From a virus (lineage: Duplodnaviria > Caudoviricetes): a stretch of 61,073 bases of DNA. Location: IMG/VR virus record IMGVR_UViG_3300022747_000019, positions 1 through 61,073 of that record. One strand, written 5' to 3'. Positions 7,565-59,486 of this stretch are shown in pieces (position 1 is the first letter of the stretch; every line of letters begins with the position of its first letter). Below the pieces are notes generated by a model. That model was not told the DNA's origin. It did no database searches and saw only the letters and a list, made by a program, of their open reading frames with translations. The translations under genes were made by a program, and so were the position numbers.

Positions 7565-9177
7565 ACTGATACTGCCCTCAATCTATTTGCCACCTTTTCA
7601 GCGGCGATTTCTCGGATCGATCTACTTATTAGCAACTTAGGGTCGCGAGAGGTAGGAATACTTTGTTTTCCACCCTGAGAGAAAGTTGCGTATGGGTTTT
7701 TCATATATGAGTAGAAAATAGTAATTAATCCCTCTCTACTTTGAGATAATCTTTCAACTTTAACTGTAGAAGCGAATCTACCTGTTCTATAATTAAGAAT
7801 ATCTTTACGACTTCCGTCACCCATATTAGCAGAGATAACGTCTTGCAAGTGCGTATTAATTAACGATTGCAAACTTGATAAATTAACCTGTTGGCTAGCA
7901 GATTTCTGAGCAGTAGCTGCTTTTGAAACACTAGATTTAATCTCAGCTAAAAGTTTCTTACCTTCTTGAGCCGACTTTGCTAAACTAGCAGTACTTGCTA
8001 TCTTCTGAGGTGCAGATTTTTGGCTATATACCGTAACAGGATTATGTTGTATTTTTAAAGGCTCTACTGCTTTGCCTTTTATAGTATTGGCAATAGCACT
8101 TGCAATATATTCTTTTACTGTTTTTGAGCTTTTAAGATCTAATATATACTTACCAGGGTCAGCTATATAGCCTTGGAGAACTTTCTCCATTTGACTAGTA
8201 TACTTATCTAGCTTAACTACTAAGTTATCAAATGACTTAGCAGCTTCTGATACAGAACCTATCTTAGGTATACCTATCAGTCTTGTTTTCTTAGTATCGT
8301 ATTCAGCTGTCAGTAATTTCATTAAACTTGAAATTATCTGCAAGCCTTTTGTAATTTTACCAGTATCCTGATTACCGATTCCGCCTTCAGAGTATTTCTC
8401 TTGGAATTCGATATTCATAAAGATTCTACCAGCGGAGAAGTCTTTTTGGATAGCGGCGTTTAGTTCTGAATATATGGGTTTATTAGATAAAGTACTTGAT
8501 GCTCTATCTAAGTCCACGGATAGCTTAATAATTCTATCCAGTAAATCGTTTTCTTCTGTTATACCGCCAGCACTCAGTAACTGACGTCCAGTAGTTTGTG
8601 CGTATATGTGACCGCGTTCAAATAGTGCGGTAACTTCTTTTTTCGCAATTTCAGCAGATTTACCCTGAAAAGCTCCTAGTGTACGCAGAAATTCTACTAT
8701 ATGGTTTAGTGTGTTAGCATGTGAAAAATCAAGTCCGCGGAACGCAGTTGCTTGAGTCTTAACACCTTCTTCAGCCAGTACGCTACCAATAGTTCTATTT
8801 GATTTTCCAATTATATTTGAGCCAGTTTCGGAGTAAACCTCGAAGTGTCGGGCTTTTAATCCACCGTAATTTTGCTGCAAAAATATAAGATATAACTCTA
8901 GCCCCGATTGAGGGTCTAGTCCAGGTACAAATGCGGATATTAAACTAGCCGCACTCTCTTTGGTAATAACTAATCTAGTTCTACCTTGTTGCTCGCCAAC
9001 GTCTCGGAATTTTTCACTGTCTGCACTTAAGATAGACGCTGCACTGAGCATTCGATTCTTACTAGCCAATGCTTTAGTACTATATTCTAGTAATCTACGT
9101 TGCATACTCTGTAAATCAGAGACTGCGGAAGCATTGGCCTTATTACGCAGAGCAGAGCTAAATTCTTGAATACTCAT
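7561..9177 (-). CDS. Tail completion protein with long N-terminal extension
   Basis: C-terminal LNYRTGRFA...YMKNPY...RDPKLLI resembles the T5 tail completion protein; synteny. Confidence 0.65.
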   Translation of the reverse strand: MSIQEFSSALRNKANASAVSDLQSMQRRLLEYSTKALASKNRMLSAASILSADSEKFRDVGEQQGRTRLVITKESAASLISAFVPGLDPQSGLELYLIFLQQNYGGLKARHFEVYSETGSNIIGKSNRTIGSVLAEEGVKTQATAFRGLDFSHANTLNHIVEFLRTLGAFQGKSAEIAKKEVTALFERGHIYAQTTGRQLLSAGGITEENDLLDRIIKLSVDLDRASSTLSNKPIYSELNAAIQKDFSAGRIFMNIEFQEKYSEGGIGNQDTGKITKGLQIISSLMKLLTAEYDTKKTRLIGIPKIGSVSEAAKSFDNLVVKLDKYTSQMEKVLQGYIADPGKYILDLKSSKTVKEYIASAIANTIKGKAVEPLKIQHNPVTVYSQKSAPQKIASTASLAKSAQEGKKLLAEIKSSVSKAATAQKSASQQVNLSSLQSLINTHLQDVISANMGDGSRKDILNYRTGRFASTVKVERLSQSREGLITIFYSYMKNPYATFSQGGKQSIPTSRDPKLLISRSIREIAAEKVANRLRAVSV

Positions 9178-9755
9178 CCGTAATATGCCGTATGTTGGTC
9201 TAGTACTCTGCGAATATGTGCAGGTAAGCTAGTATTAGTGATATATTCGATTTGTACTGTATTGGCGCCAATAGCTTTCTGCGAGTGAACTGCCGCATCA
9301 TTACGTACATAGTACTGAATCAAATCAGCAATAGCTAATTTTAAATCAGGAGGAATTGCTTCATATCCAGCATTATAAGTAACGCGGAAGGCATTTGTTT
9401 TAAAGTAGTTAAAGTACTGAGCTGCGATTAGTTCGATAGCGCTCTCTTCTGGAACTACTACGTAATCTGCATATTCTGTTAATGTTGTATAAGTTTTTCC
9501 GAAGTCATCGGAGAACTCTACAGAACCTACTTGCATTACTGGAGTTTCTGTTAGCAGCATACGGTTGCCGTGTGCACCGCCTCTAAATGTATCAGTCTTA
9601 GGATCATCAACAAAATCCAAGAAAGTTCTGCGGCAAATATTTTTTACTAAGGCACTTACCTGAGGGATTAGTTGTTTAACTGTCGCATCCTGATTTGTGC
9701 TTGAAATTCCAAGATATGTTTTGTATTCTGCGAGCGTAATTAAATCTAATGCCAT
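9174..9755 (-). CDS. Head completion / head-tail adaptor
   Basis: LITLAEYKTYLG...YNAGY..IPPDLKLA pattern typical of gp6-like adaptors. Confidence 0.8.
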   Translation of the reverse strand: MALDLITLAEYKTYLGISSTNQDATVKQLIPQVSALVKNICRRTFLDFVDDPKTDTFRGGAHGNRMLLTETPVMQVGSVEFSDDFGKTYTTLTEYADYVVVPEESAIELIAAQYFNYFKTNAFRVTYNAGYEAIPPDLKLAIADLIQYYVRNDAAVHSQKAIGANTVQIEYITNTSLPAHIRRVLDQHTAYYG

Positions 9756-9880
9756 AGAATATCCTTTATGTCTTTTATAAATATACCAGACATTTCCGCT
9801 TCAATTGCGTGGTGTGTAATATACTTATAAAAGACAAGGAACCGAAGTTCCTTGTCTGAGAGATTATCTCAATCGTTAGA

Positions 9881-11863
9881 TTAAGATAGTGTACCCCACT
9901 TGTATGCGCTAACGCCGTTACCAAGGTTAGTAGTAACTTGAGTCATGCCAGTACGTAGAGACGCAACTAGAACACGACGCTGAGTTTCAACTAGCTCTTG
10001 AGTATCCATACGTAGGCCACGTTGGTTACCAGCCATGAAGTTACCTGGAGCGAAAGCGATCGCGCCGGTAGTACCAGTACCCTTAGAAGCGAATTCTGCG
10101 GAAACTAGAACTGGGCTGTTACCGATCTGACCAACTTGGCCAGTTAGTAAAGTAGCCTGAGGACCAACTTGGTTCATTGTCTGGAATGTGCTGTCATCTA
10201 ATAGGTCGTAGTAGACTTCTGTAGAAACAACATAAACAACTTCAGCTGGGTCTAGACCCCATGCACCTAGGTTCTTACGTAGGTTGCGTAGGTTAGCGAT
10301 AGTAGCAACTGTAGAAGCTGCAGCACCGTTAGCGGAAGTTACGTTGGCAGTAGCGTAAGAAGCTAAGCCTTTAACTGGGTCTGCACCAGAACCAGCACCT
10401 AGAAGATAAGCGCGGTCAACAGAACGTGCTAGACGACGGATCATAGCATCGCGAACGATAGGCATAATGACCAATAGGCTGTCTTCTTCTTCTTCGTAGT
10501 TTAGATATTCTTTAGTCGCTACTTTGTAAGCGTTTAAAGTAATTTCTTTTAGAGCGTGTGGGCTGCCAGAACCTGGAGTTTGACCAGTAGTAGCAGTTGT
10601 ACCGCCAGAACTGTTTGCACCACCGAAATCGCTGTTAACAACCCAGCTTGCTAAACCAGCTTCAGGGTTTAGAGGCATAGTCATAACGTTAGTCTTCATG
10701 TTAACTGCGCGAACTAGCGGAGCAACGACTAAACGACGACGAACTTCAGCTTCCATGTTTGTAGAAACTTCTAGTTCCCATGTAGCGCTTGGCATGTGTT
10801 GGCCAGTTTTTTCGATCATTTGTTGACCGAACTTAGTGTCTTGAATAGACTTGCCAGCAATCTTAGCTAGCATAACTGCTTTTTCACGTTCTGCATAGTC
10901 AGAACCAGCAGCAGTACCTTTGTCAGCGAAAGCCATCTTGCTAGCTTGTAACTTAGCAATTTCGTCAGCCTTCTCTTTTAGAGTAGCTTGTAGGCCGTCT
11001 AGAACGCTCTTAGACTCAGCAGCCTGGTCTTCGAAACGCTTAGTAACTTCAGCTAGAAGCTTTTCAGCACCGCTTTGGCCAACTTGGATTTGTGCTTCAA
11101 CAGCACTTTTAACTTTAGCGTCTAGCTCAGCTTGAGCCTTAGCAGCAGCCTCAGCAGCAGCTTTTTCTGCAGCTTGATTGGCTAGTAATTTTTGGGTAGC
11201 TTCTTCAGCGGCCTTAGCAGCAGCGTCAGCAAGCATTTTTTGCATTTCTTCTGGAGTCATGTCCAATTCCTTTGTTGTTGTGCTCTTTGCTTCCGTTGTG
11301 GATTCTAGCCCTTTAGCTGAGTCGCCTTTGGGTGCAAATTGCTGTTTAAACTGTTTATAGTCCGAGTCATTTTCAAATGCTTTGGACAGATCGAATAGAG
11401 TATTTTGATTGCAAGGCACAGAAACTACCGAAATTTCGACAAGTTCAAGTTCCTTAATAACAAACACCTCTGCAGCGCTATTGTATTCTGCATCAAGGAT
11501 GCGGAAACCAATACTGAATGCTGTTAAAACTTTGTCTTTAATAAGACCAAATACTTCCTCAGCAGCTGAAGAAATACGGGCTTTTACCCACAAACCTTTA
11601 TCATCCACTTTATAATCAGTCATGCGTCCGATAGGATCATCATAATCATGCTGAGATAAAATAATTGGATTCTTAAGGTAATTTTGAATACCTTTCTCCC
11701 AAACGGACTTAGGTACAACGTCACCGCTTCTATCAATATCTGTAGTACTTGCGTAACCTTCAATAAAGATAGATTCGATGCCGCTGTCTCCGCTGGCAGG
11801 TAAGGCTTTTTCATTCACGGCAAAAGCACTATTTAATCGTAGTACTTTGTTTTTATCTACCAT
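9881..11863 (-). CDS. Prohead protease fused in frame to HK97-fold major capsid protein
   Basis: N-terminal IEGYAST...HDYDDPIG...FSIGF...LVEISVVSVPCN (HK97 protease), then coiled-coil delta domain and capsid; internal SD + ATG at 11260. Confidence 0.9.
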   Translation of the reverse strand: MVDKNKVLRLNSAFAVNEKALPASGDSGIESIFIEGYASTTDIDRSGDVVPKSVWEKGIQNYLKNPIILSQHDYDDPIGRMTDYKVDDKGLWVKARISSAAEEVFGLIKDKVLTAFSIGFRILDAEYNSAAEVFVIKELELVEISVVSVPCNQNTLFDLSKAFENDSDYKQFKQQFAPKGDSAKGLESTTEAKSTTTKELDMTPEEMQKMLADAAAKAAEEATQKLLANQAAEKAAAEAAAKAQAELDAKVKSAVEAQIQVGQSGAEKLLAEVTKRFEDQAAESKSVLDGLQATLKEKADEIAKLQASKMAFADKGTAAGSDYAEREKAVMLAKIAGKSIQDTKFGQQMIEKTGQHMPSATWELEVSTNMEAEVRRRLVVAPLVRAVNMKTNVMTMPLNPEAGLASWVVNSDFGGANSSGGTTATTGQTPGSGSPHALKEITLNAYKVATKEYLNYEEEEDSLLVIMPIVRDAMIRRLARSVDRAYLLGAGSGADPVKGLASYATANVTSANGAAASTVATIANLRNLRKNLGAWGLDPAEVVYVVSTEVYYDLLDDSTFQTMNQVGPQATLLTGQVGQIGNSPVLVSAEFASKGTGTTGAIAFAPGNFMAGNQRGLRMDTQELVETQRRVLVASLRTGMTQVTTNLGNGVSAYKWGTLS

Positions 11864-13645: not shown

Positions 13646-14248
13646 ATGTTTTTAATTAAGGAAAATATGACCTCTGGAATCTATAGATTAACATTTTCAT
13701 CAGGTAAATACTACGTAGGTAAATCCCTTGATATTGACACTAGATGGAAGCAACACTTTAACAAGTTCGCGCTAGGCAAGGCTGCGCGACCTATGCAACT
13801 TGAGTTCGACCGATGCGGGCCACCCAAAACTGAGGTACTTTTTGAGTGCCACAAAGACCATATCGACATTCTAGAAGAGTGGCTGATTGATCAACTTAAG
13901 GGTCCGGATATGCTTAATACTACATATCCGGATATTGTCCGTACCGAGGCAATCGCGGACATTATTAACACCAACACAGGTGAGCTACAGCTTAGTACTT
14001 GGGAGCACCTTGAACTTATTCAAAACTATAAAGTTATTGCGGATGAAGCTATTAAACTTTCCAAGCGATGGGAGGATAAGGTTCAAGAGTACAAAAAAGA
14101 CGGCTATATCATTGACGCAGACTACGAAGACGCGGTCGATGTTGCAGCTAGATACCACACAGAAGCCATAGAGTACAAAGACGAACTCACCAGACTTAAA
14201 AACCTAAACTGGTGGGAACGTCTATTCAATTATAGTGTAAACGTATAA
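13646..14248 (+). CDS. GIY-YIG endonuclease-like protein (probable start 13667)
   Basis: SGIYRLTFSSGKYYVGKS...RWKQH; antisense to the flanking late genes. Confidence 0.7.
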   Translation: MFLIKENMTSGIYRLTFSSGKYYVGKSLDIDTRWKQHFNKFALGKAARPMQLEFDRCGPPKTEVLFECHKDHIDILEEWLIDQLKGPDMLNTTYPDIVRTEAIADIINTNTGELQLSTWEHLELIQNYKVIADEAIKLSKRWEDKVQEYKKDGYIIDADYEDAVDVAARYHTEAIEYKDELTRLKNLNWWERLFNYSVNV

Positions 14249-16604: not shown

Positions 16605-16928
16605 ATGACTACAAAAGCTGTGAATTATACCGCCGAACAAACGGCGAAGATGGTTACCGACTATGCCAACGGCGTGACCGTTGAAGCTATGGCTAAAGAA
16701 CTGGGTAAATCTGTTCGCTCTATCGTTGCGAAACTTTCACGCGAAAAGGTTTACAAAGCTAAGGCATACGTTAGCAAGACTGGCGAGGCCGTGGTTAAAA
16801 AGGACGAATGGGCTGATTACATTGGCGAGGCTTTGGGCTTGGCTGAAGCTGATACCGATTCGCTGACAAAAGCAAATAAAAATGCACTGAAGGCAATCGC
16901 TGACTTTATCAAGACTGAAAAGACTTGA
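16605..16928 (+). CDS. T5 A2-like DNA-binding protein, paralog 1
   Basis: NYTAEQT...RSIVAKLSRE.VYK...SLTKANK, resembling T5 A2. Confidence 0.7.
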   Translation: MTTKAVNYTAEQTAKMVTDYANGVTVEAMAKELGKSVRSIVAKLSREKVYKAKAYVSKTGEAVVKKDEWADYIGEALGLAEADTDSLTKANKNALKAIADFIKTEKT

Positions 16929-17799: not shown

Positions 17800-18276
17800 A
17801 TGGCTAAAATCAATCGCGTGGCAGTTTATGACATGGACGGCACAATTGTAGATTCTTCGCATCGTTATCGCACAATCACGGACGAAAACGGCGAACGAAT
17901 CGACCTTGATTATTGGCGCGAAAACGAACACCTAGCAATGAATGACGGACTTTTGCCCATGTTCGAACAATATCGGGCAGACCTTGCAGACGAAAACTGT
18001 TATGTGATTATTGCAACTGCGCGGGTTATGAATGCCCCAGATTGGCAATTTGTCAAGGAAATTTTGGGTGAACCTGATTATTTTATTAGCCGAAAATCAG
18101 GCGATACACAATCAGGGAAAACCCTTAAAATCAACGGCTTGGCAAAATTCTTCAATTTGGTTACATTCAAAAACGCGGATTTTGTTTTTTATGAGGACAA
18201 TGTAAGCTATTTGAAAGCCGTTTGTGATCGGTTCAAAATTCGAGGCGTTTACATTCCATCGGTTCAAGGCCACTAA
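17800..18276 (+). CDS. HAD-family phosphatase (PNKP/nucleotidase-like)
   Basis: DMDGT motif I, ATAR motif II, Lys motif III, YEDN motif IV. Confidence 0.75.
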   Translation: MAKINRVAVYDMDGTIVDSSHRYRTITDENGERIDLDYWRENEHLAMNDGLLPMFEQYRADLADENCYVIIATARVMNAPDWQFVKEILGEPDYFISRKSGDTQSGKTLKINGLAKFFNLVTFKNADFVFYEDNVSYLKAVCDRFKIRGVYIPSVQGH

Positions 18277-20413: not shown

Positions 20414-20746
20414 TTGAAAATGACTGCAAAAACCGTAAACTACACCGCCGAACAAACCACTAAAATGGTGTCCGATTATGCGGCTGGCGTAACCCCTGAA
20501 ACTATCGCGCAAGAATTGGGCAAATCGGTGCGCTCGATTGTCGCTAAACTTTCACGCGAGGGCGTTTATAAGAAAAAAGAATATAAAACCAAAACGGGCG
20601 CTCCCGTTGTGAAAAAAGACGCGCACGCCGATGCAATTGGCGCGATTCTGAAAATGACCGAGGCCGAGACTGAAAGCCTTACAAAAGCGAATAAAACCGC
20701 TTTGGAAAAGATTTTCCAAGCCTTGGCGAATTCTCGCCCACTGTAA
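20414..20746 (+). CDS. T5 A2-like protein, paralog 2
   Basis: Clear paralog of 16605..16928. Confidence 0.7.
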   Translation: MKMTAKTVNYTAEQTTKMVSDYAAGVTPETIAQELGKSVRSIVAKLSREGVYKKKEYKTKTGAPVVKKDAHADAIGAILKMTEAETESLTKANKTALEKIFQALANSRPL

Positions 20747-21150: not shown

Positions 21151-21391
21151 ATTTTTTCTCACTTGGCAAAGTTTTTGAAAAGTTTTATAATTTCTTTATG
21201 AAATCGAGAAAGGGACTGAGATGACAGACAGCGAATTTTTCCAACAAATTCAGGAAGACTGGTTCAATGAATTTGCTTGTGACGAACGTGATAAAATTTT
21301 CATCGCTACCATCGTACAAGACGAAAATTTTGAATTTGACGATGTTCCCCTTTGAGAGTATAATAGAATCTTAGACAGCGCAGAAACCAAT

Positions 21392-21718
21392 TTGAAAGGA
21401 CATATGATGACTGCAACCAAAACCGTAAACTACACCGCCGAGATGACCGCCGAGATCGTGGAGGCCTACAAAGCTGGTGAAGCAGTGGAAACTATCGCCA
21501 CTCGCATGAACCGTACCACTCGCTCGATCGTGGCTAAGCTGGCGCGTGAAGGCGTGTACAAAGCTAAGACCAAAGCTAAGGGTGAGCACGCTCCCCGTAA
21601 AGCTGAGCTGATTACCGAAATTGCTCACAGCATCGGTACTAACGAAGAACTGATCGAGTCGCTTGAGAAAGCTACCCGTGAAGCTCTGGAGCTGATTGCC
21701 AAGGCTGTTCGTGCCTGA
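21392..21718 (+). CDS. T5 A2-like protein, paralog 3
   Basis: VNYTAEMT...RSIVAKLAREGVYK...SLEKA. Confidence 0.7.
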   Translation: MKGHMMTATKTVNYTAEMTAEIVEAYKAGEAVETIATRMNRTTRSIVAKLAREGVYKAKTKAKGEHAPRKAELITEIAHSIGTNEELIESLEKATREALELIAKAVRA

Positions 21719-22209
21719 TGCAATTGAGGGTCAGAAAATTTATACTTGATGACCCTCACTTTTCTTGATATAATATATACTTATAAAACGAAATAACAGC
21801 CGAGACGGCCGGCCACGCTAACAATTATTATCTTGATTATGCCAGCCGTCTCGTGTTATAATACTATATAGATTACGCGATTTGTTAAATAATTAACTAG
21901 TCTGAATTCTGGGTGACAGCGGTCGGCATTAGATAGCCAAACGTCTTAATTGTGGGAAAACAGTATATACCGAGCCACAGCCCTTAGCAACCATAATAAA
22001 TTACTTAAACTGTGCTAGCCAGGTCTGACTTGCTACACTATCGAAATGGGGCCACTAGTAGGTACTCTGCAGAAGTACGCGAAAGGGTATATGTTCGAAT
22101 TTAGCAAGCAGTTTGTTAAGTAATTTATTATGGGTGTTATGAGGTCTGCATTTATTGCAGAGTAGCAACTTAATGGCTGAGGAATTCTCTAGCAGCCGCC
22201 CAATCTAAT

Positions 22210-22285
22210 GTCGCGTTGGACTTCTGGTGAGGTCAGTACCCTTTCAAGGTACCCAGGCAGGGTTCGAATCCCGCACGCGATACCA
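22210..22285 (+). tRNA. tRNA-Glu(TTC), isolated from the main cluster
   Basis: GTCGCGT/ACGCGAT acceptor, GTACC-CTTTCAA-GGTAC anticodon arm, TTCGAAT, CCA. Confidence 0.85.
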
Positions 22286-22286
22286 A

Positions 22287-22388
22287 ATCCACTGACGAGT
22301 AGCCTGCAATGGCACGAAACTCTCAACCTTCGTAGTAGGTGTGCGTGATTCTCCCAAGTCACCGCCTGCCGCAGTTGAGGGTCTGGAT
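22287..22388 (+). ncRNA. Type I hammerhead ribozyme
   Basis: Stem I ATCCA/TGGAT, CTGACGA core, stem II GTAGCC..GGCAC, GAAA, stem III CTCTCAAC/GTTGAGGG, GTC cleavage triplet at 22381-22383. Confidence 0.85.
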
Positions 22389-22797
22389 GAAACCGAACCC
22401 GGTCATAGACTGGTCTCAAAGTAGTAATTCAAGGGAGCCGACCCTATACCCCTTGCAGGGCTCCGCTATGAGTCGAACCATTAAACTAGAACCCGACCCT
22501 AAACTGTAGCGAGGTCGATAAATACAAGCACAGTCGGAGTAGCCGTGATCACCTGGAAGGTAGTATGTAAGCTTCGGCTGTGTACATCCAGTTAGTGCAG
22601 GCGTTTAGAGCGTAGCACATTTGCGTTGAGGAACGATAAACCTACCAAGTCTCCCCTTACCATGAAAACAGTTAGCCGATTAACCATCAGGCTCAGATGA
22701 GTAGTTTAGGGTCAATGCAGTCAGCGGATTGGTCATCCCCGTAAGTCGTTGTGTGAGCACCCGCAAAAACACAGTGCTGTTGCAACAGCCAATGTTC

Positions 22798-22837
22798 AAA
22801 GCCCCACACGGTCGCTCCGTGGTGGGGCTTTGTTTTG
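22798..22837 (+). terminator. Intrinsic terminator ending the RNA locus
   Basis: AAAGCCCCAC...GTGGGGCTTT hairpin followed by GTTTTG. Confidence 0.65.
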
Positions 22838-22925
22838 CCCCAAAATACCAACCCGCAAAATTTTGTGCGTCTTGCGCCCATTATACAGTGCCTAACCTAC
22901 ATTTGTCAAGTGAATTTTCTGCACA

Positions 22926-23015
22926 CTGACCCTAAACCGCATAAATTATAGCAAGTCCACGCATCTGACCCTAAATTGTAGCAAACCAGAGCAAATTTGT
23001 GCGGTTTAGGGTCAG
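22926..23015. repeat. 22-bp inverted repeat containing GACCCTAAA motifs
   Basis: CTGACCCTAAACCGCATAAATT / AATTTGTGCGGTTTAGGGTCAG with one mismatch; a third GACCCTAAA lies in the spacer. Confidence 0.8.
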
Positions 23016-23077
23016 GACGAAAAAAAGCCCACTTAAATCAAATTAAGTGGGCTTTTGTGCATTTAAGTGCAATTAAG

Positions 23078-23404
23078 TCAAATTTTCTGCAATTTAGGGT
23101 CAGATTTAGCCACCAAATTGCGTTCGATCATGATTAGGACCTGTTTATTTACTTTTTCGAGCGATTCTAGCAATTCTAGGTTACAATCGAGCAATTCTGC
23201 AATCCGTTCGATGTGGGTGCTCTTTTTTGTTGGCACCTCACCGCGTTTGTTGAGGTATTGCTTTTTTTGGTAGACGCCGAGGCTGCTAAGCTTAGCAATA
23301 ATGCTACGTTCTGGCACCTCGAACTGCTGGGCTAGCTCAGATACGGTCACACCGGCCTGATAGTCTTCAATCAACTGCTTGGTAGATTCATTAGTGTATT
23401 TCAT
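23078..23404 (-). CDS. T5 A2-like protein, paralog 4 (divergent)
   Basis: KYTNEST...RSIIAKLSSLGVYQKK...SLEKVNK. Confidence 0.65.
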   Translation of the reverse strand: MKYTNESTKQLIEDYQAGVTVSELAQQFEVPERSIIAKLSSLGVYQKKQYLNKRGEVPTKKSTHIERIAELLDCNLELLESLEKVNKQVLIMIERNLVAKSDPKLQKI

Positions 23405-38708: not shown

Positions 38709-39218
38709 ATGAGTAAAAATTTAACTAATAAACTCTTTGATACATTAGAATCAGGAGATTTATTTATATATGTAGATGACTCGCTTGCTATTGCACAAGT
38801 ATTGTCTAAATTGGGTTTTTCCAATAAAGGCCAATATGGGCAAATAGTAAGGCAGTTTCTGCACGATAACGAGATAGACACCTCACATTTTACACCAAAT
38901 GGTAGACCTTTAGTACCAAAAATCAAAAAGATTTGCCCTGTGTGCAATTCTAAGTTCAAAACTGAACCTAGAAAAGAAAGTGAACAGATAACTTGTTCTA
39001 GAAGTTGTAGTAATACCTATTTTAGAACTAAAGATGGTGCTAGTTCTTACCGCGATCGTGCATTAAAGCACTATGGTTGTAAATGCCAAAAATGCGGATT
39101 TAATAATGTACTCGCATTAGAAGTTCATCACATAGACAAGAATAGAGAGAATAATTCTATCGACAATTTAGCAGTTTTATGTGCTAACTGTCATAGGATT
39201 GAACATGGAACCGCCTGA
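38709..39218 (+). CDS. HNH homing endonuclease
   Basis: CQKCG...EVHHID...N...NLAVLCANCH. Confidence 0.85.
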   Translation: MSKNLTNKLFDTLESGDLFIYVDDSLAIAQVLSKLGFSNKGQYGQIVRQFLHDNEIDTSHFTPNGRPLVPKIKKICPVCNSKFKTEPRKESEQITCSRSCSNTYFRTKDGASSYRDRALKHYGCKCQKCGFNNVLALEVHHIDKNRENNSIDNLAVLCANCHRIEHGTA

Positions 39219-42415: not shown

Positions 42416-42490
42416 GGAAATATAGCACAGCGGTAGTGCACATCCTTCATACGGATTAGGTCGGGAGTTCGAATCTCTCTATTTCCACCA
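42416..42490 (+). tRNA. tRNA-Met/Ile2(CAT)
   Basis: ATCC-TTCATAC-GGAT; CCA. Confidence 0.82.
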
Positions 42491-42618
42491 CAAAAAATAT
42501 TGGCTTGTTTTAAAATGCCAAAGCCTGTATAATTATTGTTTTCGGTGAGAGAAGTAAAGTTACAATGAACAGATTCTGAAATTTGTACTTGTTCTCTCAT
42601 TGATTTTCAAGTATAATT

Positions 42619-42873
42619 TATACTTAAATTAAACACTCTGACCGTAGCGACAGAAGTCAGTTACTTCATAACTTAAAGTACTATGATGTAACGACTATAC
42701 CGCCGAATTGGTCGCGGCTGTGAAACCTAAGGGCTTGTTCCCGTTCACATTAATCTAGGTAGTGAGCAATACACTTAAAAATAAGAAGTGGTTTAGGTAA
42801 AGCAACCACTTTAATCAAAAACTCCAGAACTGTTTTCGAACATTCTCGGTTTAGTGTGTTTAATTTAGGTATA
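42619..42873 (+). ncRNA. About 250-nt stem-closed structured RNA with GTTACTTC motif
   Basis: TATACTTAAATTAAACAC/GTGTTTAATTTAGGTATA closing helix; promoter just upstream; no ORF. Confidence 0.55.
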
Positions 42874-42996
42874 GTGAAAGAAACAGCTACTTCTGACTGT
42901 TAATCAGGGAGTCTAGGTTCGAATCCTAGCAGGTCGTCTTAGATCTGTAATGTAATGGTAGCATCCTTCCGTTCTGTTTCGCCTTGTTCTTATCTA
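42866..42996 (+). ncRNA. YrlA-like Y RNA (permuted tRNA mimic) with intact Asn(GTT) anticodon arm
   Basis: GAAACAG/CTGTTTC stem, CTACTTC, TCTGA-CTGTTAA-TCAGG, T arm, closed acceptor CAGGTC/GATCTG, D arm; directly upstream of Ro60. Confidence 0.8.
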
Positions 42997-43011
42997 TTTA
43001 AAAGGAATCAA

Positions 43012-44322
43012 ATGTCTTCGATCAATCGTGTTGTTCGTACACCTGCATTTAACTCTGTGGGTACAAAAGTGCCTGCTATTAATGCAGAGCGTCAACTAAA
43101 GCGTGTTACTCTTGCAGCTATGCTGTGGGATAATCAGTTTTATCTTGATGGTAAAACTCACGCAGAACTGGTCAAAGACCTTGTGGCTAAAGTCGCTCCT
43201 GAAAAGGTAACGGCTCTAGCTGAGGAAGCCCGTACAAAGTTCAAACTGCGTCACATTCCTCTGTTGCTTGCCCGCGAGCTTGCTCGAAACGGAAAACTGC
43301 AAGCAAACGCGTTGACTAATGTCATTCAGCGTCCAGACGAAATGTCTGAGTTCCTGTCCATTTATTGGAAGGAAGGCAAATCTGCTGTGTCGAACCAGGT
43401 TAAAAAAGGCTTAGCGGCTTGTTTTAACAAGTTCAATGAGTACCAGCTTGCCAAATGGAATAAGAACTCTGCCGCAATCAAATTGCGTGATGTGATGTTC
43501 ATTTCCCACCCTAAACCGCAAAATGCCGAGCAAGAGGCGCTTTTCAAGCGCATCGCGGCTGATACACTTGAGACACCAGACACATGGGAAACTCAACTAT
43601 CTAGCGGCGCAGATAAGTGTGGTACGTTTACCCGTCTTATGACGGAAAAGAAACTAGGAGCCCTAGCTTTCTTGCGTAATCTGCGTAATATGCGCGACAG
43701 TGGTGTTTCGGATTCCCTTATCCGTAGTTATGCATCTACTGTTGACGTTAGCAAAGTCCTGCCATTCCGCTATATTGCGGCGGCTCGTATTGTACCACAA
43801 TACGAAGACATGCTAGAAACAATGATGTTCCGTAGCCTAGCTACACATCAAAAAATCCCTGGAAAGACAGTCTTGTTAATCGACGTTAGCGGCAGCATGT
43901 TCGGTACCAAGATTTCCGCAAAATCAGATCTAGATCGCTTCGATGCGGCAGCAGCACTCGCTATGTTGTGCCGTGAAGTATGCGAAGAAGTCGAGATTTA
44001 TAGCTTTAGTAACAATGCTGTGCGTGTCGCACCTCGTCGCGGATTTGCTCTCCGTGAAGCTATTACAAACTCTCAAGGTCACGGTGGAACTGCCTTAGGC
44101 AATTCCATGAAGACTGTGAACGGCAATGGTTCGTATGATCGTTGTATCGTGTTCACTGACGAGCAAAGCTATGATCGCCCAGGTGCTCCTCGTGGCCGTG
44201 GTTACGTTGTTAACGTAGCAAGCTACCAAAACGGAGTTAACCATAGTGCATGGACAGAGATTAACGGCTTTAGCGAGTCTGTTATCGACTATATCCAAGC
44301 CTTGGAGCAGGAAGCTGCTTAA
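43012..44322 (+). CDS. rsr: Ro60/TROVE-domain RNA-binding protein with vWA domain
   Basis: FNEYQLAKW, KLRDVMFISHPKP, TWETQLS, AFLRNLRNM, LPFRYIAA, MIDAS DVSGSM and FTDEQ; AAGGA RBS before ATG 43012. Confidence 0.92.
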   Translation: MSSINRVVRTPAFNSVGTKVPAINAERQLKRVTLAAMLWDNQFYLDGKTHAELVKDLVAKVAPEKVTALAEEARTKFKLRHIPLLLARELARNGKLQANALTNVIQRPDEMSEFLSIYWKEGKSAVSNQVKKGLAACFNKFNEYQLAKWNKNSAAIKLRDVMFISHPKPQNAEQEALFKRIAADTLETPDTWETQLSSGADKCGTFTRLMTEKKLGALAFLRNLRNMRDSGVSDSLIRSYASTVDVSKVLPFRYIAAARIVPQYEDMLETMMFRSLATHQKIPGKTVLLIDVSGSMFGTKISAKSDLDRFDAAAALAMLCREVCEEVEIYSFSNNAVRVAPRRGFALREAITNSQGHGGTALGNSMKTVNGNGSYDRCIVFTDEQSYDRPGAPRGRGYVVNVASYQNGVNHSAWTEINGFSESVIDYIQALEQEAA

Positions 44323-47028: not shown

Positions 47029-47111
47029 TATTTTAGCACTTTAGAAGCCCACGCCTGTGCACAGGTACGTGAATGTGGTTACGACGCTTGTCCGTTAGAG
47101 TGCTAAAATAT

Positions 47112-47430
47112 GGTTGTATGAAGCAGACAGAAAAGTGTTCTGGACGCGGGTTCGACTCCCGCCATCTCCACCGAAGCATACTGAGCCGACTGTAGAATTC
47201 AGTAAGCATTTAGGGAAGATCCACGTTTAGTGTGTTTCGTTGGGGATGTCATGGTTTCGACAGGGCAAAGAGTAAACAAGTAGACAACTCGGCAATGTAG
47301 AAGCCGTAGGGTTGGGTAACCGGCCGCAGAAGCAAAACAAAAATAAACGCAAACGAATCAGTTTACGCATTAGCAGCTTAATTGCCGCTTAGGGTTTTTG
47401 TCGGTTCCTCGTAACAGAATACCGACTCTA
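47112..47430 (+). ncRNA. ssrA: Circularly permuted (two-piece) tmRNA, tag ANESVYALAA*
   Basis: 3' acceptor piece GGACGCGGGTTCGACTCCCGCCATCTCCACC (to 47172) precedes the 5' piece GGGGATG...TTCGAC (47242); G3:U70; tag at 47349-47381. Outer ends approximate. Confidence 0.9.
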
Positions 47431-47441
47431 TTAAGGAATTT

Positions 47442-48056
47442 ATGAAAAAACGAAGTATACTTGACCCTAAGCTGTTCCAAGAGGACGGTAGTAGCAATAG
47501 CTTTACTAAAACAGTAGCAAGAACTCATGAATTCTACCTAAGCGGCCCTATTGAGGACGCAGAGAATTATATTGATTGGTTTGATACCATTCGTAATGCT
47601 AGTAGTAATGATGCTATCCGTATTTACATTAACTCACCTGGTGGCGATCTTTATACTACGCTACAGTTTTTACGAGTTATGAGTGATACAGAAGCCCATG
47701 TAACTACTAGTGTTGAAGGCGCTTGTATGAGTGCCGCAACTATGATCTTCTTGCATGGACACGCACAAGAAGTAACTCCACACAGCCTGTTTATGTTCCA
47801 CGATTATTCTAGTGGCACTTTTGGCAAAGGTGGAGAACAGTATGACCAGATTCAGTTTGAACGTCAATGGTCTAAGAAATTTATGTCGGAAGTTTATAAA
47901 GACTTCTTGACCGACTCCGAAATCGAATCCATGATGCACAATAAAGACATTTGGATGGATTCTGACGAAGTAGTCAAGCGTTTAACTACGCTCGCTGAAA
48001 AGCGAAACAAAGATTTGGGTGATGATGCAGCTGGGAAGGCCGGCGACCAGCCTTGA
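47442..48056 (+). CDS. ClpP-like protease
   Basis: IYINSPGG, ACMSAATMI, FMFHD, KDIWM. Confidence 0.85.
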   Translation: MKKRSILDPKLFQEDGSSNSFTKTVARTHEFYLSGPIEDAENYIDWFDTIRNASSNDAIRIYINSPGGDLYTTLQFLRVMSDTEAHVTTSVEGACMSAATMIFLHGHAQEVTPHSLFMFHDYSSGTFGKGGEQYDQIQFERQWSKKFMSEVYKDFLTDSEIESMMHNKDIWMDSDEVVKRLTTLAEKRNKDLGDDAAGKAGDQP

Positions 48057-50891: not shown

Positions 50892-51512
50892 ATGGACAAA
50901 CGCCAAGCAATAGTAGAATCATTAGAGATCTTTTATCCAAATACTTCTAATATTTTGGATAAATATGCTAAATCTTGTAAAAAAGCATATATTAATTTTG
51001 ACTTCTTTATAGACATTATATGTAAAGAATCATATAATCTAAGTACCGATATGAGTATATCTGCAGGTACAGTGACTAAGTTAATGAAAGAGTTATTCCC
51101 TGACAGAATGACCGGAAATACTGGAAGTAAGCCACACGTACATATACTAGAAAAAGCAGAGTTAAAGTACTGTGCTAGGTGTAGTGAAGTAAAACCTTTT
51201 GAAGATTTTAGGAAAAATAAATCTCAAAGGCTAGGCTTAAATTCATATTGCAAAGTATGTCATCAAGAGACAACTACAAATACTCAGGCAGGTAGACAGT
51301 CTGAGTATAAAACTAATAAAATACAAAGAACAGTGTCTTGGTCGGAAGTAGAAGCTATAAAAATTTTCTATAATAATTGTCCAGAAGGGTATCATGTTGA
51401 CCACATACTACCATTAAACGGCAAACTTGTATCAGGGCTACACGTAATGAGTAACCTACAATACTTGCCTGCAGCAGAAAATTGCTCTAAAAGCAATAAA
51501 TACACAATATGA
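50892..51512 (+). CDS. HNH endonuclease
   Basis: YHVDHILPL...SGLHV..NLQ...EN..KSN plus Cys clusters. Confidence 0.85.
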   Translation: MDKRQAIVESLEIFYPNTSNILDKYAKSCKKAYINFDFFIDIICKESYNLSTDMSISAGTVTKLMKELFPDRMTGNTGSKPHVHILEKAELKYCARCSEVKPFEDFRKNKSQRLGLNSYCKVCHQETTTNTQAGRQSEYKTNKIQRTVSWSEVEAIKIFYNNCPEGYHVDHILPLNGKLVSGLHVMSNLQYLPAAENCSKSNKYTI

Positions 51513-56242: not shown

Positions 56243-56367
56243 AAAATGAAAAGCCTAGCTAACGCTGGGCTTTTTGTTTTTTACACTTGACCCTAAACTG
56301 TCAAAGTTGTATAATATAATCTGATTCGATAATATTGTCGAGTCGCAACAACGAAAGGAGTTTTCGT

Positions 56368-57345
56368 ATGAAAAAAGAGTTTGGCGTCTTTATTGGACGC
56401 TTTCAGCCCTGCCATGAAGGTCACGTTCATGCGCTGGGTGTAGCCGCTAGTCAGGTAGAGACTTTGATTGTGTTGGTTGGTTCTGCTAACCGCGCTCGAT
56501 CAATTAAGAATCCTTGGACATATACAGAACGTGTGCAATTGCTTCGTAAGAAGTTGCGTACTGCTGGTGTAGAGAACGTGGATTTCATGCCTGTTAACGA
56601 CTACGCATATAATGATGAACAGTGGATTTCGGATGTTAAGGTAACAGTACGATCACGTACTATCTATACTCCAGTGCTGTTTGGGCATACTAAAGAAGGT
56701 AATAACTATCTCAAGTGGTTCCCAGAATGGGAATTCCGCGAGATTAATTCAGAGTATCAGATCAATGCAACGCAAGTTCGTACTGCAATGCTGAAATCAG
56801 AGCATCCCGATATGCCTGATACTGTGAAAGCTGACTGGAAGTTCTATGAGAAAGAGCGTGAGCTGTTTGCTAACTATCCTTTCCCAGAAACTCTTAACTT
56901 CAACTGTAGCGATGCAGTTCTAGTTTGCCAAGGTAAAGTTTTGCTTATTCAGCGTAAACACGCTCCAGGCCAAGGTGCTTGGGCATTGCCAGGCGGTTTC
57001 AAGAACGCTAAGGAAAATTTCCTAGATTGTGCTATCCGTGAGTTGCAAGAAGAAACTAATGTGCGAGTGCCTGAAAAGGTTCTTCGTGGTTCAGTAGTGA
57101 GTCAACAACTATTTGATTCACCTACTCGCAGTTTCGGTCTTCCACGTAACACAATGGCTGTACTAATTAAAGTCCAGCCTGACCCAGACGGCAAGCCTCC
57201 GCGTGCTAACGCGGCAGACGATGCTCAGCACACAGAGTGGGTTGATATTGTCGATGCACTCAACAATTACCGTCTGTATGATGACCATGCAGACATTATT
57301 TCCAAAATGACAGGCACAACTGCCTATCCAGCATTCATTTACTAA
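56368..57345 (+). CDS. nadM: Bifunctional NMN adenylyltransferase / Nudix ADP-ribose pyrophosphatase
   Basis: IGRFQPCHEGH, GSAN...KNPW, WALPGGF...RELQEET, ADDA. Confidence 0.9.
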   Translation: MKKEFGVFIGRFQPCHEGHVHALGVAASQVETLIVLVGSANRARSIKNPWTYTERVQLLRKKLRTAGVENVDFMPVNDYAYNDEQWISDVKVTVRSRTIYTPVLFGHTKEGNNYLKWFPEWEFREINSEYQINATQVRTAMLKSEHPDMPDTVKADWKFYEKERELFANYPFPETLNFNCSDAVLVCQGKVLLIQRKHAPGQGAWALPGGFKNAKENFLDCAIRELQEETNVRVPEKVLRGSVVSQQLFDSPTRSFGLPRNTMAVLIKVQPDPDGKPPRANAADDAQHTEWVDIVDALNNYRLYDDHADIISKMTGTTAYPAFIY

Positions 57346-57359
57346 GTAAGGAGCTTACT

Positions 57360-58754
57360 ATGAAATTCGCAAAAAACATCATTCTGAACACTGACAGTTA
57401 CAAAACTTCGATGTTCAAGCAATATCCTGCCGGTACTACTGGTGTATATTCTTATATCGAGAGCCGTGGCGGTCGTTATGACCAAACCGTGTTCTTCGGT
57501 CTTCAAGCCTTTATCAAGGAGTATCTGCTTGACCCTATTACGCAAGCCGACATTGATTTTGCGGGCGAGATTCTACAAGCCCACGGAGAGCCCTTTAATC
57601 GTGAGGGCTGGGAATACATTCTGCGTGAGCACAACGGATTCCTTCCCGTCGTTATTCGTGCAGTACCTGAAGGCACTGTGGTGGGTGTCAAAAACGTTCT
57701 GGCAACAATCGAGAACACAGATCCCAACTGCTTTTGGCTGACTACTTGGTTGGAAACCGCGTTGCTTCGTGCAATCTGGTATCCTACTACAGTAGCTACC
57801 CAGTCGTGGACTATTAAACGTGTAATCTTAGATTACCTGGAGAAAACTGGTGACCCTAGCCTTATTGATTTTAAACTGCACGACTTTGGCGCTCGCGGTG
57901 TATCTTCTATGGAGAGCGCTGGTATCGGTGGTGCCGCGCACCTCGTTAACTTTATGGGTACTGATACTATTAGTGGTATCCTCTTTGCTCGGGAGTATTA
58001 CAACACTTGCGTTGCTGGATTCAGTATCCCGGCCGCAGAGCACAGTACTATTACCAGCTGGGGACGTGATGGTGAAGTTGATGCATACCGAAATATGCTC
58101 AACCAGTTTGCCCGTCCAGCCAGTATCGTCGCCATTGTTTCAGACAGCTATGATATCTTCAACGCTGTCCGCAACCTCTGGGGCGAAGAACTGCGTCAGC
58201 AAGTAATTGACAGTGGTGCTACTATTGTTATCCGCCCAGACAGCGGCGATCCTTTGATTGTTAATCAACAATTGATCGAGATTCTAGGAGAGAAATTTGG
58301 ATACACAACCAACAGCAAAGGCTTCCGAGTCCTCAACAACGTTCGACTTATTCAGGGCGATGGTGTTAACGAGCTTACTATTCGTAGCATTCTCGGAGGG
58401 TTCATGGCTATGGGTTGGAGTGCTGACAATATTGCTTTTGGTATGGGCGGAGCCTTACTACAGCAAGTTGATCGCGATACTCAAAAGTTCGCAATGAAAT
58501 GCTCTAGTGCGGAAGTAAACGGAAAGTGGATTGATGTACAAAAAGATCCTGTCACTGATAGTGGCAAGAAGTCTAAAGCAGGCCGTGTTTCGCTTTGGGA
58601 ATCCGGCGGAGAGTACGTTAGTGCAGTTGATGCACCACGCACTTGGACTGATAGAGGGTTTGGTTGGAAAAATGCCCTGGAAACTGTTTACTGTGACGGT
58701 AAACTCGTAACTGAGTATACCTTCGATCAAGTACGTGCTAATGCTCGTGCCTGA
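57360..58754 (+). CDS. nadV: Nicotinamide phosphoribosyltransferase
   Basis: TDSYK, LHDFGARG, PAAEHS, IRPDSGDP, QGDG, FGMGG, KKSK. Confidence 0.95.
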   Translation: MKFAKNIILNTDSYKTSMFKQYPAGTTGVYSYIESRGGRYDQTVFFGLQAFIKEYLLDPITQADIDFAGEILQAHGEPFNREGWEYILREHNGFLPVVIRAVPEGTVVGVKNVLATIENTDPNCFWLTTWLETALLRAIWYPTTVATQSWTIKRVILDYLEKTGDPSLIDFKLHDFGARGVSSMESAGIGGAAHLVNFMGTDTISGILFAREYYNTCVAGFSIPAAEHSTITSWGRDGEVDAYRNMLNQFARPASIVAIVSDSYDIFNAVRNLWGEELRQQVIDSGATIVIRPDSGDPLIVNQQLIEILGEKFGYTTNSKGFRVLNNVRLIQGDGVNELTIRSILGGFMAMGWSADNIAFGMGGALLQQVDRDTQKFAMKCSSAEVNGKWIDVQKDPVTDSGKKSKAGRVSLWESGGEYVSAVDAPRTWTDRGFGWKNALETVYCDGKLVTEYTFDQVRANARA

Positions 58755-58838: not shown

Positions 58839-59486
58839 ATGAACATGAAACCAACATTAGCAATTTTTATCCATGATCCACAATGCGAAACTGAGTGCGC
58901 TTTGGGTATGATTGAAGGCTTGGTTCGTGATTTCGACATTCGTACTTTTGGTATTGATAATCTTACTACTGGTTTCTTAGCTGACTTTGATGCAGTGTGC
59001 TTTCCAGGCGGAATGGGTGATGCTGACGATTTCTTCGATATTTTTACCGAAGACCATATTTCAGCAGTTCAAGAGTATGTACATTGTGGAGGTAAGTATT
59101 TCGGTATTTGCATGGGTGCTTATTGGGCAGGCCCAAACTACTTTGACCTAGTATATGATTTAGAAGTAGGTCAATATATTGAGCGAGCTTCTGGAGATAT
59201 TATTACTGACGGCCCTACTATTGCTAAAGTTGAATGGTTAGGTGTTCCAGAACAAATGTACTTCTATGATGGTTGTGCCATTGTAGGAGAGGATATGGAA
59301 GTAGTTGCAGAGTATTACAACGGTGATGCTATGGCGGCTATTCAGGGTAATGTAGGTATGATTGGTTGTCATCCTGAAAGTCAGGAATGGTGGTTTGAAC
59401 TTGACAATATCCCTAAATCATATTATAATAGTAATCATAGACAGTTAATGTCTGACTTTGTAAAACGACTGATTAATAATGACTAA
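58839..59486 (+). CDS. Class I glutamine amidotransferase-like (BPL_N-type) protein
   Basis: FPGG, YFGICMGAY, HPE. Confidence 0.7.
   Translation: MNMKPTLAIFIHDPQCETECALGMIEGLVRDFDIRTFGIDNLTTGFLADFDAVCFPGGMGDADDFFDIFTEDHISAVQEYVHCGGKYFGICMGAYWAGPNYFDLVYDLEVGQYIERASGDIITDGPTIAKVEWLGVPEQMYFYDGCAIVGEDMEVVAEYYNGDAMAAIQGNVGMIGCHPESQEWWFELDNIPKSYYNSNHRQLMSDFVKRLINND

Follow-up and report, generated by a model that had tools for sequence, protein, structure and literature searches.

What does a phage make from a kilobase of DNA that lies where two blocks of its genes converge and that encodes no conserved protein? The question is raised by IMG/VR record IMGVR_UViG_3300022747_000019, a linear fragment of 61,073 bases (the window, analysed whole and judged 58% complete), in which positions 21833-22837 of the plus strand form a promoter-to-terminator unit without a conserved open reading frame (ORF). 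The source is, to judge from its genes, an uncultivated lake phage and a distant relative of T5: T5-like phages of Vibrio, Aeromonas, Escherichia and Proteus have head protease/capsid proteins about 35% identical to its own, its portal and terminase genes are recognisable, and the sequencing runs containing the unit are mostly labelled freshwater metagenomes. We conclude that the unit is real, conserved and transcribed: an operon for non-coding RNA (ncRNA) that belongs to a new family, is assembled from shuffled modules and most likely owes its maturation to a hammerhead ribozyme of its own. The fuller reading, a multi-module phage ncRNA precursor or operon that is matured by the hammerhead and has a stable 3' product as its main output, we hold with considerable confidence. 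RNAs of this kind are known, both as large ornate phage RNAs beside transfer RNAs (tRNAs) and as phage transcripts cut by ribozymes; what is new is the family and the combination.

From 5' to 3' the unit consists of promoter P2, modules M1, M2 and M3, an optional closed insert after M3 that is either tRNA-Glu(UUC) or a plain hairpin, a type-I hammerhead, a 3' domain and a terminator. The features of the unit and its borders, with the evidence for each (MFE, minimum free energy; nt, nucleotides), are these:

21722-21761, plus strand: hairpin AATTGAGGGTCA / TGACCCTCACTT, then TTTTCTT (inverted repeat I15; same layout in relatives).
21746-21774, plus strand: promoter P1, TTGATG, 17 nt, TATAAT, with TG before the -10 (promoter scan).
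21833-21862, plus strand: promoter P2, TTGATT, 18 nt, TATAAT, TG-extended (promoter scan).
21911-21983, plus strand: M1, composed of GGGUGACAGCGG, a variable hairpin, and ACGUCUUAAUUGUGGG .. CCGAGCCACAGCCC (alignment A3, 24 sequences).
21990-22133, plus strand: M2, a long hairpin with an ornate tip (inverted repeat I1; MFE fold).
22128-22211, plus strand: M3, composed of GGGUGUUAUGAG, hairpin 1, AUAACAACUUAAUGG, hairpin 2 (loop CGAAnnCUCUAG) and GCC (match to model R2, 84.4 bits).
22210-22285, plus strand: tRNA-Glu, anticodon UUC, CCA encoded (ARAGORN; Rfam RF00005).
22287-22388, plus strand: type-I hammerhead (sequence; alignment A1, 25 sequences).
22384-22797, plus strand: 3' domain (about 450 nt), with a two-hairpin 5' module (22412-22505), a central part and a 3' module (22700-22771).
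22410-22759, plus strand: abundant RNA species of about 340-350 nt (RNA-library contigs, three studies).
22495-22713, plus strand: long-range helix of GACCCUAAACUGU (22495-22507) with GUAGUUUAGGGUC (22701-22713) (inverted repeat I16).
22797-22837, plus strand: intrinsic terminator of the unit (inverted repeat I18; promoter/terminator scan; kept in relatives).
22880-22909, minus strand: consensus promoter TTGACA, 18 nt, TATAAT (12 of 12), facing the unit (promoter scan).
22915-23105, no strand assigned: four copies of a recurring word (22928+, 22967+, 23005-, 23093-) in nested inverted repeats I2, I3, I8 and I17.

The promoter and the intrinsic terminator of the unit are both conserved among relatives; they are consensus matches, with predicted start and stop sites. 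Transcription from P2 would begin near 21869; P1 lies 87 nt upstream of P2, and the -10 of P2 is kept 12-20 nt ahead of M1 in 24 relatives (alignment A3). The terminator is formed by the inverted repeat 22797-22807/22822-22832 followed by TTTGTTTTG (the scan puts its core at 22814-22828), and a similar one ends the unit in 17 of 25 relatives by a strict regular expression and in more by eye. The longest ORF in 21870-22835 has 76 amino acids (aa) and runs on the minus strand over the tRNA and the ribozyme, the plus-strand maximum being 56 aa, and among 16 full-length relatives no ORF is conserved, the longest one shifting strand and position. An earlier note, made from the letters alone, had proposed an ORF-free structured RNA unit between a promoter and a terminator, containing a long-stem domain at 21991-22133, a tRNA-Glu and a hammerhead; the missing conserved ORF, the covariation and the RNA contigs described below bear out that picture in each of its parts. 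Its observation that the DNA is GC-richer holds against the DNA further out (0.43-0.54 inside the unit, 0.33-0.40 outside) but not against the two flanking genes, which are equally GC-rich, and GC content alone therefore marks nothing. The hairpin at 21722-21761, which overlaps the -35 of P1, probably terminates the upstream 108-aa gene. In many relatives (L114, L116, L121, L123-L125, L129, L130, L135, L136) a separate structured RNA of about 150 nt (AGACAGUCGGGAAGGGCUUAAUGAAU ... CGACUGUCUAAUUUUUU), ending in a terminator-like U-run, follows P1 and precedes P2; in the window it is shrunk to a short hairpin (21801-21853).

The evidence for structure in this transcript is comparative, not thermodynamic. 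For M3, of which 59 distinct sequences were collected by covariance model in the viral and metagenome loci examined, 95.7% of pair positions are paired against 78.1% after shuffling, and the covariation score is 0.476 against 0.144 (0/500 shuffles); both hairpins carry many double changes, one pair being GC in 29 sequences and UA in 28. The pattern used to search for M3 fixes GGTGTTATGAG and ARCAACTTRATKG, so that those columns are invariant by construction; the hairpin stems are unconstrained. M1 is mostly invariant, with an inner hairpin that covaries (at pair 71-105 both sides are changed in 12 sequences) and a UGUGG/CCACA helix that is maintained by double changes in relatives L109 and L129 and reads UGACA/UGUCA in L296. 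The arms of M2 (21976-22008/22116-22148) span 33 nt, are 82% complementary and pair in the MFE fold; the module varies in length from 0 to about 250 nt among relatives. When the partners of covarying pairs are slid as a control, pairing falls to 30-61%, and the G.U pairs in all covarying helices, the long-range helix included, fit the plus strand only, which is also the strand of the tRNA and the ribozyme. The earlier note had made its proposal depend on covariation among homologs; such covariation is found, at 0/500 shuffles, in M3, in the hammerhead and at each end of the 3' domain.

The tRNA-Glu(UUC) scores 38.7 bits with Rfam RF00005 against a gathering score of 29, although the whole-window scan with default filters did not list it. 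A tRNA directly follows M3 in 25 of 44 related loci, where it is always Glu-UUC and of two clearly different sequence types. In one locus (L282, 1143-1306) the slot holds tRNA-Glu(UUC) and, 5 nt on, tRNA-Tyr(GUA).

The hammerhead has the complete catalytic core: stem I pairs AUCCA (22287-91) with UGGAU (22384-88), and between its strands lie CUGACGAG (22292-99), stem II with a UGCAAU loop, CGAAAC (22315-20), a long stem III (22320-22381, about 60 nt, with conserved internal loops) and GUC. All 25 sequences keep CUGAYGA(G), CGAAAC and GGGU(C/A) with little or no variation, and all three helices show compensatory changes, the open ends lying in stem I. Over 27 pairs, 90.2% are paired against 73.3% when shuffled, with a score of 0.494 against 0.205 (0/500); both sides are changed at 20 of the 27, and slid partners lower pairing to 31-41%. 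Stem I has only 3-5 base pairs (CG in 23 sequences and UA in 2; UA in 22 and AU in 3), and G.U pairs are frequent, one stem III pair being UG in 16 sequences and CG in 9. Cleavage is predicted between C22383 and U22384. The ribozyme would stay on the upstream fragment; it is therefore not the maker of the tRNA 3' end and would instead make the 5' end of the 3' domain.

Two further roles for hammerheads in the window were considered and rejected. The only other core-like string lies inside a ClpP-like gene, and two matches are expected often enough by chance (0.77 expected; 20 of 100 shuffles equal the count) that we do not regard it as a second ribozyme. Cutting in trans within the window is unlikely because at the other copies of GUUUAGGGUC the following letters (AGAAA, AAUGC, AGGAC, AGAUU) do not pair with the stem I strand AUCCA.

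That hammerheads divide long phage transcripts is an established view (Perreault et al. 2011, PMC3088659): the ribozymes sit at the junctions of functional units, and the ribozyme of the window shares with those both the catalytic core and this siting. It differs from them in the conserved, covarying extension of about 60 nt in stem III, which no Rfam model scores, in freeing (as predicted) a structured ncRNA and not an mRNA, and in being fused to a fixed set of other RNA modules. The 'theta' ribozymes of gut phages, which are self-cleaving and HDV-like (resembling that of hepatitis delta virus), lie directly downstream of a phage tRNA and trim its trailer; the ribozyme of the window is alike in its position directly after a phage tRNA, but it belongs to another class, and its predicted cut falls about 100 nt downstream and would free a separate RNA. 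As a side observation, type-I hammerheads whose stem III is short and whose stem II loop is UGAAAU-like (UGMAAK) occur in at least 120 viral stretches (loci L138-L249); among the matches listed, many stand 20-40 nt before a start codon and several contigs carry 2-5 copies, which agrees with the transcript-cutting view of PMC3088659.

The 3' domain ranges from 375 to 724 nt among relatives, and both of its ends covary: its 5' module (alignment A4, 22 sequences) is 85.9% paired against 69.1% shuffled, with a score of 0.415 against 0.124 (0/500), and its 3' module (alignment A7, 15 sequences; match to model R1, 71.2 bits) is 86.4% paired against 68.8%, with a score of 0.48 against 0.21 (0/500), on a model-fitted alignment that leans towards structure. 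RNAalifold on MAFFT alignments of the two 3' blocks gave 3 and 0 pairs, the variable stems being misaligned, and the blocks were then scored by hand-read helices on the same alignment and by model-based realignment. The earlier note had seen here a domain of about 220 nt closed by a helix. Its arms are present, GACCCTAAACT (22495-22505) and AGTTTAGGGTC (22703-22713) being 100% complementary over 11 nt, but the domain proves to be the middle of a larger one (22384 to about 22797), the closing helix has modest covariation support, and its arms are copies of a word that recurs outside the RNA. In numbers, the helix GACCCUAAACU/AGUUUAGGGUC is 96.9% paired against 95.2% shuffled, with a score of 0.212 against 0.168 (1/500), as counted on 15 of 22 members picked for good arms; nine pairs do not vary and three inner pairs are changed on both sides. 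For members with several arms the one judged best was listed, the aligner choosing a different arm for one row, and across 12-14 nt the 3' arm is complementary to an upstream arm in 14 of the 22 members. The 5' arm has an alternative partner in a local hairpin, CGACC..GGUCG (22494-22517), which is mutually exclusive with the long-range helix and by eye also shows compensatory changes (ACCCU/AGGGU against ACCCC/GGGGU). Conserved loop motifs of the 3' RNA are UGGUR, UUAUCCUGUACC and a repeated AGUAA. A further module, GAAAGAAC..UAAAAUACAGCNAUCNUCUAA, is found in the 3' part of L101 (G003), L109 (G002), L122, L129, L124 (G018) and L296 (G009), where it sometimes replaces and sometimes accompanies the module set of the window; there are therefore at least two types of 3' domain.

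Evidence at the RNA level comes from contigs of four metatranscriptome runs (X3, X6, X7, X10), each contig having a single depth; stretches without contig cover were given no weight. In X3 the contig 22481-22789 has a word depth of 6053 and the piece 22450-22508 a depth of 9776, against 17.8 and 30 for the flanking genes. X6 gave one contig, which spans exactly 22410-22759. X7, from another study of 2025, gave 22419-22491 and 22492-22757, with what we take to be adaptor letters directly before 22419 and directly after 22757; if that library was dUTP-stranded, the adaptor orientation fits plus-strand RNA, which is a weak hint. Within the limits set by such contigs, which are weighed below, the libraries show the 3' domain at least 200-fold above its neighbours and at about the same 340-350 nt in three studies, and the contig ends are a weak hint of RNA ends. 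A circular product was considered and set aside, since no backward joint was listed, although contigs cannot exclude a circle.

The unit is shared among uncultivated phages. A blastn search of 50,697 phage records matched a single record, in the tRNA part only, and so found no isolate phage with similar sequence, and the neighbouring 338-aa protein found no relative among viral contigs; portal relatives at 64-93% identity are common there (90 found, 80 kept), and the M3 model matches 8 of 23 portal-related records. The M3 pattern occurs in 24 viral stretches, 38 metagenome stretches and 1 of 185,579 species genomes, the last being a 1-kb contig of a metagenome-assembled genome. Four related viral records have the same layout, namely a 108-aa gene, two promoters, 800-1200 nt of non-coding DNA, a terminator and a convergent 108-aa gene, and in the five genomes compared for synteny the unit lies between convergent D5-like paralogs, the flanking genes being 72-82% identical in DNA and the unit matching in patches. 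Of 47 distinct M3 variants, 42 have M1 upstream (absent in 2, contig too short in 3) and 43 have a hammerhead core no more than 520 nt downstream (absent in 3, contig too short in 1). Comparison of these loci shows M1, M3, the tRNA-Glu, the ribozyme and the 3' domain as modules that are shuffled between related phages.

Several observations weigh against the reading of the unit as a hammerhead-matured RNA precursor. The folding-energy z-score of the unit is nearly the same on both strands (-3.55 and -3.51), and the abundant 3' part folds no better than shuffled sequence (+0.75 and +0.60). No Rfam hammerhead model matches 21500-23300, even with E allowed to reach 10, or the loci of 13 relatives at gathering scores, which is likely due to the insertion of about 60 nt in stem III. 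The X3 contig 21208-22479 bridges the predicted cut, so that uncut RNA or DNA was present; its mean depth of 312 could be explained by a short high-depth end alone and was given no weight. The high-depth pieces of X3 share words with related phages in the sample, their depth thus being a sum, and X3 possibly comes from the same sampling campaign as the source DNA; X10, flat at 2-7x throughout, may be DNA and was likewise given no weight. Contigs with one depth each cannot prove RNA ends, and the contigs that begin at 22410 and 22419 do so 26-35 nt past the predicted cut, an unexplained offset. The modules, finally, do not always travel together: the M3 model has no match in the complete related genome G015, L296 carries M3 with tRNA-Glu in one unit and M1 in the following unit, in reverse order, and L297 has an M3-like module alone inside a tRNA cluster, the searched M1 and hammerhead motifs not being found in that locus.

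How, then, would such a unit work? Host sigma-70 RNA polymerase would start at the two tandem strong promoters and stop at the intrinsic terminator, giving a primary transcript of about 970 nt that is a string of separately folding modules (M1, M2, M3, tRNA-Glu(UUC), hammerhead, 3' domain). The hammerhead would cut it at C22383/U22384, leaving a 5' half with a 2',3'-cyclic phosphate and a 3' domain with a 5'-OH; the tRNA would be freed by RNase P and 3' trimming; and the 3' domain would be trimmed to about 340-350 nt (about 22410-22759) and accumulate. Cleavage, the exact RNA ends and tRNA processing are steps that we infer.

A clue to function may lie in a short word that the phage repeats. 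The window contains 10 copies of GACCCTAAA, where 0.46 are expected and none of 100 shuffles yields as many; TTTAGGGTCA, with one mismatch allowed, is present 17 times. Both arms of the long-range helix are copies of it, the 3' strand of ribozyme stem III together with the cleavage site is a near-copy (22364-22383 is 85% identical to 21713-21732), and a hairpin bearing it, CGACCCUAAGUCGUUAAA, is tandemly multiplied in the 3' domain of relatives (1-5 copies). Outside the RNA, one copy forms part of the 5' arm of the hairpin 21722-21761 that ends the upstream gene and overlaps P1, a GGTTTAGGGTCAG copy immediately precedes the -35 of the promoter on the minus strand (22909->22880), the word is found just ahead of the -35 at two promoters, and the nested inverted repeats at 22915-23105 surround a two-way terminator (23023-23056); further copies lie beside terminators at 56.3 and 58.8 kb and within some genes. 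D5-like DNA-binding proteins of 107-110 aa, four paralogs that are 38-70% identical (16605-16928, 20414-20746 and 21392-21718 on the plus strand, 23078-23404 on the minus strand), include the two genes that flank the unit convergently, each with a copy of the word at or just past its 3' end; these paralogs around the unit are candidates for reading the word.

We propose, as a tentative conjecture and one that we think rather unlikely to hold, that the product is an abundant regulatory or decoy RNA acting through GACCCUAAAC / GUUUAGGGUC. The RNA would show these letters in hairpins, the phage repeating the word at the borders of neighbouring transcription units, and would either pair with transcripts bearing the complementary word or soak up a word-binding protein. 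Precedents for such pairing are the P4 CI and P1/P7 c4 RNAs of temperate elements, which are stable, about 70-80 nt long and cut by RNase P from a longer non-coding leader, and which pair with short complementary words that recur in transcripts of the same phage. The RNA of the window resembles them as a stable RNA from a longer precursor, with target pairing conjectured; it is larger and is predicted to be cut by a ribozyme instead of RNase P. The more specific proposal, that an ornate RNA released by the ribozyme uses GACCCUAAAC/GUUUAGGGUC to control the ends or processing of phage transcripts and so times the switch between early gene sets, seems to us improbable.

Other explanations place the function of the unit elsewhere, and the nearest of them sees the 3' RNA as an 'ornate' structural RNA that, like the GOLLD and ROOL made by phages beside tRNAs, assembles itself into a multimer of RNA alone, and not as a regulator that recognises sequence. 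GOLLD and ROOL (PMC12286853, PMC5737381) are large, many-helix ncRNAs of phages and prophages, often beside tRNA genes and highly expressed, and the former source reports that GOLLD, ROOL and OLE form homo-oligomers. The RNA of the window is likewise phage-encoded, large and beside a tRNA, with many covarying helices, conserved loop motifs and very high abundance. It nevertheless lacks any match to them in sequence or structure, arises from a precursor with an internal ribozyme, belongs to T5-related lake phages, and at 340-350 nt is smaller than we take GOLLD and ROOL to be. The earlier note could match the RNA to neither by eye, and a search of all 4227 families of Rfam 15 agrees: within the unit it recognises tRNA only, as it does (at gathering scores) in the loci of 13 relatives, with no match to GOLLD, ROOL, Y RNA or any self-cleaving ribozyme family; full-text literature searches, which did not extend to supplements, found no description of this RNA. 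We regard this explanation as rather unlikely. The idea of a counter-defence cassette, in which an early supply of tRNA-Glu(UUC) replaces a host tRNA cut by an anticodon nuclease and/or hairpins act as decoys for a host RNA-binding defence protein, has in its favour that the slot tRNA is Glu-UUC in 25 of 25 loci where present, in two sequence types and with an added tRNA-Tyr in one relative, and that CGACCCUAAGUCGUUAAA (a stem-loop with an A/U-rich tail) is multiplied to up to five copies. RNA anti-CRISPRs provide a precedent for decoy hairpins that soak up a defence protein. A tRNA of T5 itself is reported to counter the PARIS defence (PMC11464382). We judge the idea unlikely all the same, for the tRNA is absent from 19 of 44 loci that otherwise keep the unit, the window has tRNA-Glu(UUC) genes at two other places, and the hairpins have no known host, nor any CRISPR repeat of one, for comparison.

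The remaining explanations concern what is read and from which strand. The region could act chiefly as DNA, as a counterpart of the T5 injection-stop (iss) region, a protein-binding region or an origin, with the RNA a by-product. According to bioRxiv 10.1101/866236, T5 has a non-coding region of 1662 bp, full of repeats both direct and inverted, where its first-step-transfer DNA ends; described there are DnaA boxes in an ordered series and the repeats IRD', IRC' and DRE. This region resembles that of the window in being more than 1 kb long, non-coding, repeat-rich and situated between early gene blocks, with a layout more conserved than the neighbouring genes. The 1.2 kb or so of non-coding DNA, the 20-fold enrichment of the word, its place upstream of two -35s and the nested inverted repeats point the same way, and for the repeat cluster past the terminator a role as DNA is still conceivable, the one reading being compatible with the other. 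Set against this, helices that covary with G.U pairs, the tRNA and ribozyme embedded in the unit and an excess of RNA of at least 200-fold argue for an RNA product; the unit differs from the T5 region in being a transcribed, covarying RNA. No DnaA box (TTWTNCACA) lies in 21700-23150, the whole window having 4 against 7.9 expected, and T5 8500-11500 contains no hammerhead core and no shared motif, with best E values of 0.16 for R1 and 0.61 for Rfam. We therefore reject homology to the T5 iss region, which is at best a positional analogue, and consider a mainly DNA role quite improbable. It is very unlikely that the unit is a mere tRNA-Glu gene with a long leader and trailer and a hammerhead for tRNA 3' processing: the tRNA does lie mid-unit and the ribozyme begins 2 nt after its CCA, but the predicted cut falls about 100 nt downstream and would leave the ribozyme attached to the tRNA, the 19 loci without the tRNA keep M3, ribozyme and 3' domain, and the abundant species is the 3' domain. 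A functional minus-strand transcript from the promoter at 22909->22880 has the least to recommend it and we give it hardly any credence. That promoter matches the consensus at 12 of 12 positions, both hexamers are kept in the five genomes compared, and the minus strand folds as well as the plus; yet covarying G.U pairs would become A.C mismatches, the tRNA and the ribozyme read on the plus strand, the terminator lies directly in the promoter's path, and the RNA contig there (22839-23003) has a depth of only 5.5. The reading as a ribozyme-matured ncRNA precursor is the one that we retain.

The surroundings of the unit can be described briefly. Genes run leftward over 1-16 kb (structural genes, terminase), rightward over 16.6-21.7 kb, leftward over 23.1-34.3 kb and rightward thereafter, and the RNA unit sits where the second and third of these blocks converge. 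The upstream block contains, besides D5-like paralogs, SprT-like proteins and a HAD phosphatase; among its scanned ORFs none is annotated as A1-, A2- or dmp-like as in T5, a dedicated search for these not having been made. The pre-early/early boundary at which the earlier note placed the unit is at most a tentative label. The phosphatase (17800-18276, plus strand, 158 aa, HAD-type motif DMDGT) matches a PHROG family named polynucleotide kinase, an enzyme that could act on the 2',3'-cyclic or 3'-phosphate ends left by a hammerhead; no RNA ligase turned up among the ORFs scanned, which are only part of those in the window.

Elsewhere the window encodes 27 tRNA genes and a transfer-messenger RNA (tmRNA). 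Within the tRNA cluster lies a gene for a Ro60/TROVE-like protein (42955-44322, plus strand; TROVE and Ro60 vWA domains), and because the phage encodes such a protein a Y RNA (YrlA-like) was tested for: Rfam gives no match in the window, the gene being 20 kb from the unit. The 460 nt of non-coding DNA before it (42490-42955), with a promoter-like site and a tRNA-like T-arm (GGTTCGAATCC), are a candidate for its YrlA-like partner, likewise without an Rfam Y RNA match. The tmRNA (47055-47442, plus strand) is of the permuted two-piece type (Rfam tmRNA_permuted 122 bits, beta_tmRNA 120 bits) and similar to tmRNAs of Betaproteobacteria, with the tag ANESVYALAA (ANDEVFALAA in the same tmRNA of relative L122), and is directly followed by a ClpP-like protease gene (47442-48056, plus strand). 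Genes for NAD salvage (56335-58754, plus strand), a cytidyltransferase/NMN adenylyltransferase-Nudix fusion and a nicotinamide phosphoribosyltransferase, precede an NAD-dependent DNA ligase (59479-60429). Homing-endonuclease-like genes (HNH, endonuclease VII-like) are scattered through the window, between portal and terminase and within the tRNA cluster (13646-14248, 38709-39218 and 50892-51512, all plus strand).

Large structured phage ncRNAs such as GOLLD and ROOL are few, abundant and without known function. To these the unit adds a family of 59 distinct sequences that is modular and has a built-in hammerhead expected to define the 5' end of its main product, and in environmental RNA libraries that 3' product far outnumbers the neighbouring messages. 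The system is compact and testable, comprising a single ribozyme, a tRNA that is optional and a single RNA of about 350 nt that contains a repeated 10-nt word, and the shuffling of modules between phages helps to work out which parts function together. If the conjectured control of phage transcripts through that word were true, ornate RNAs with a regulatory role would gain a new class, and one would have to ask whether the untranslated region of T5 also acts as RNA.

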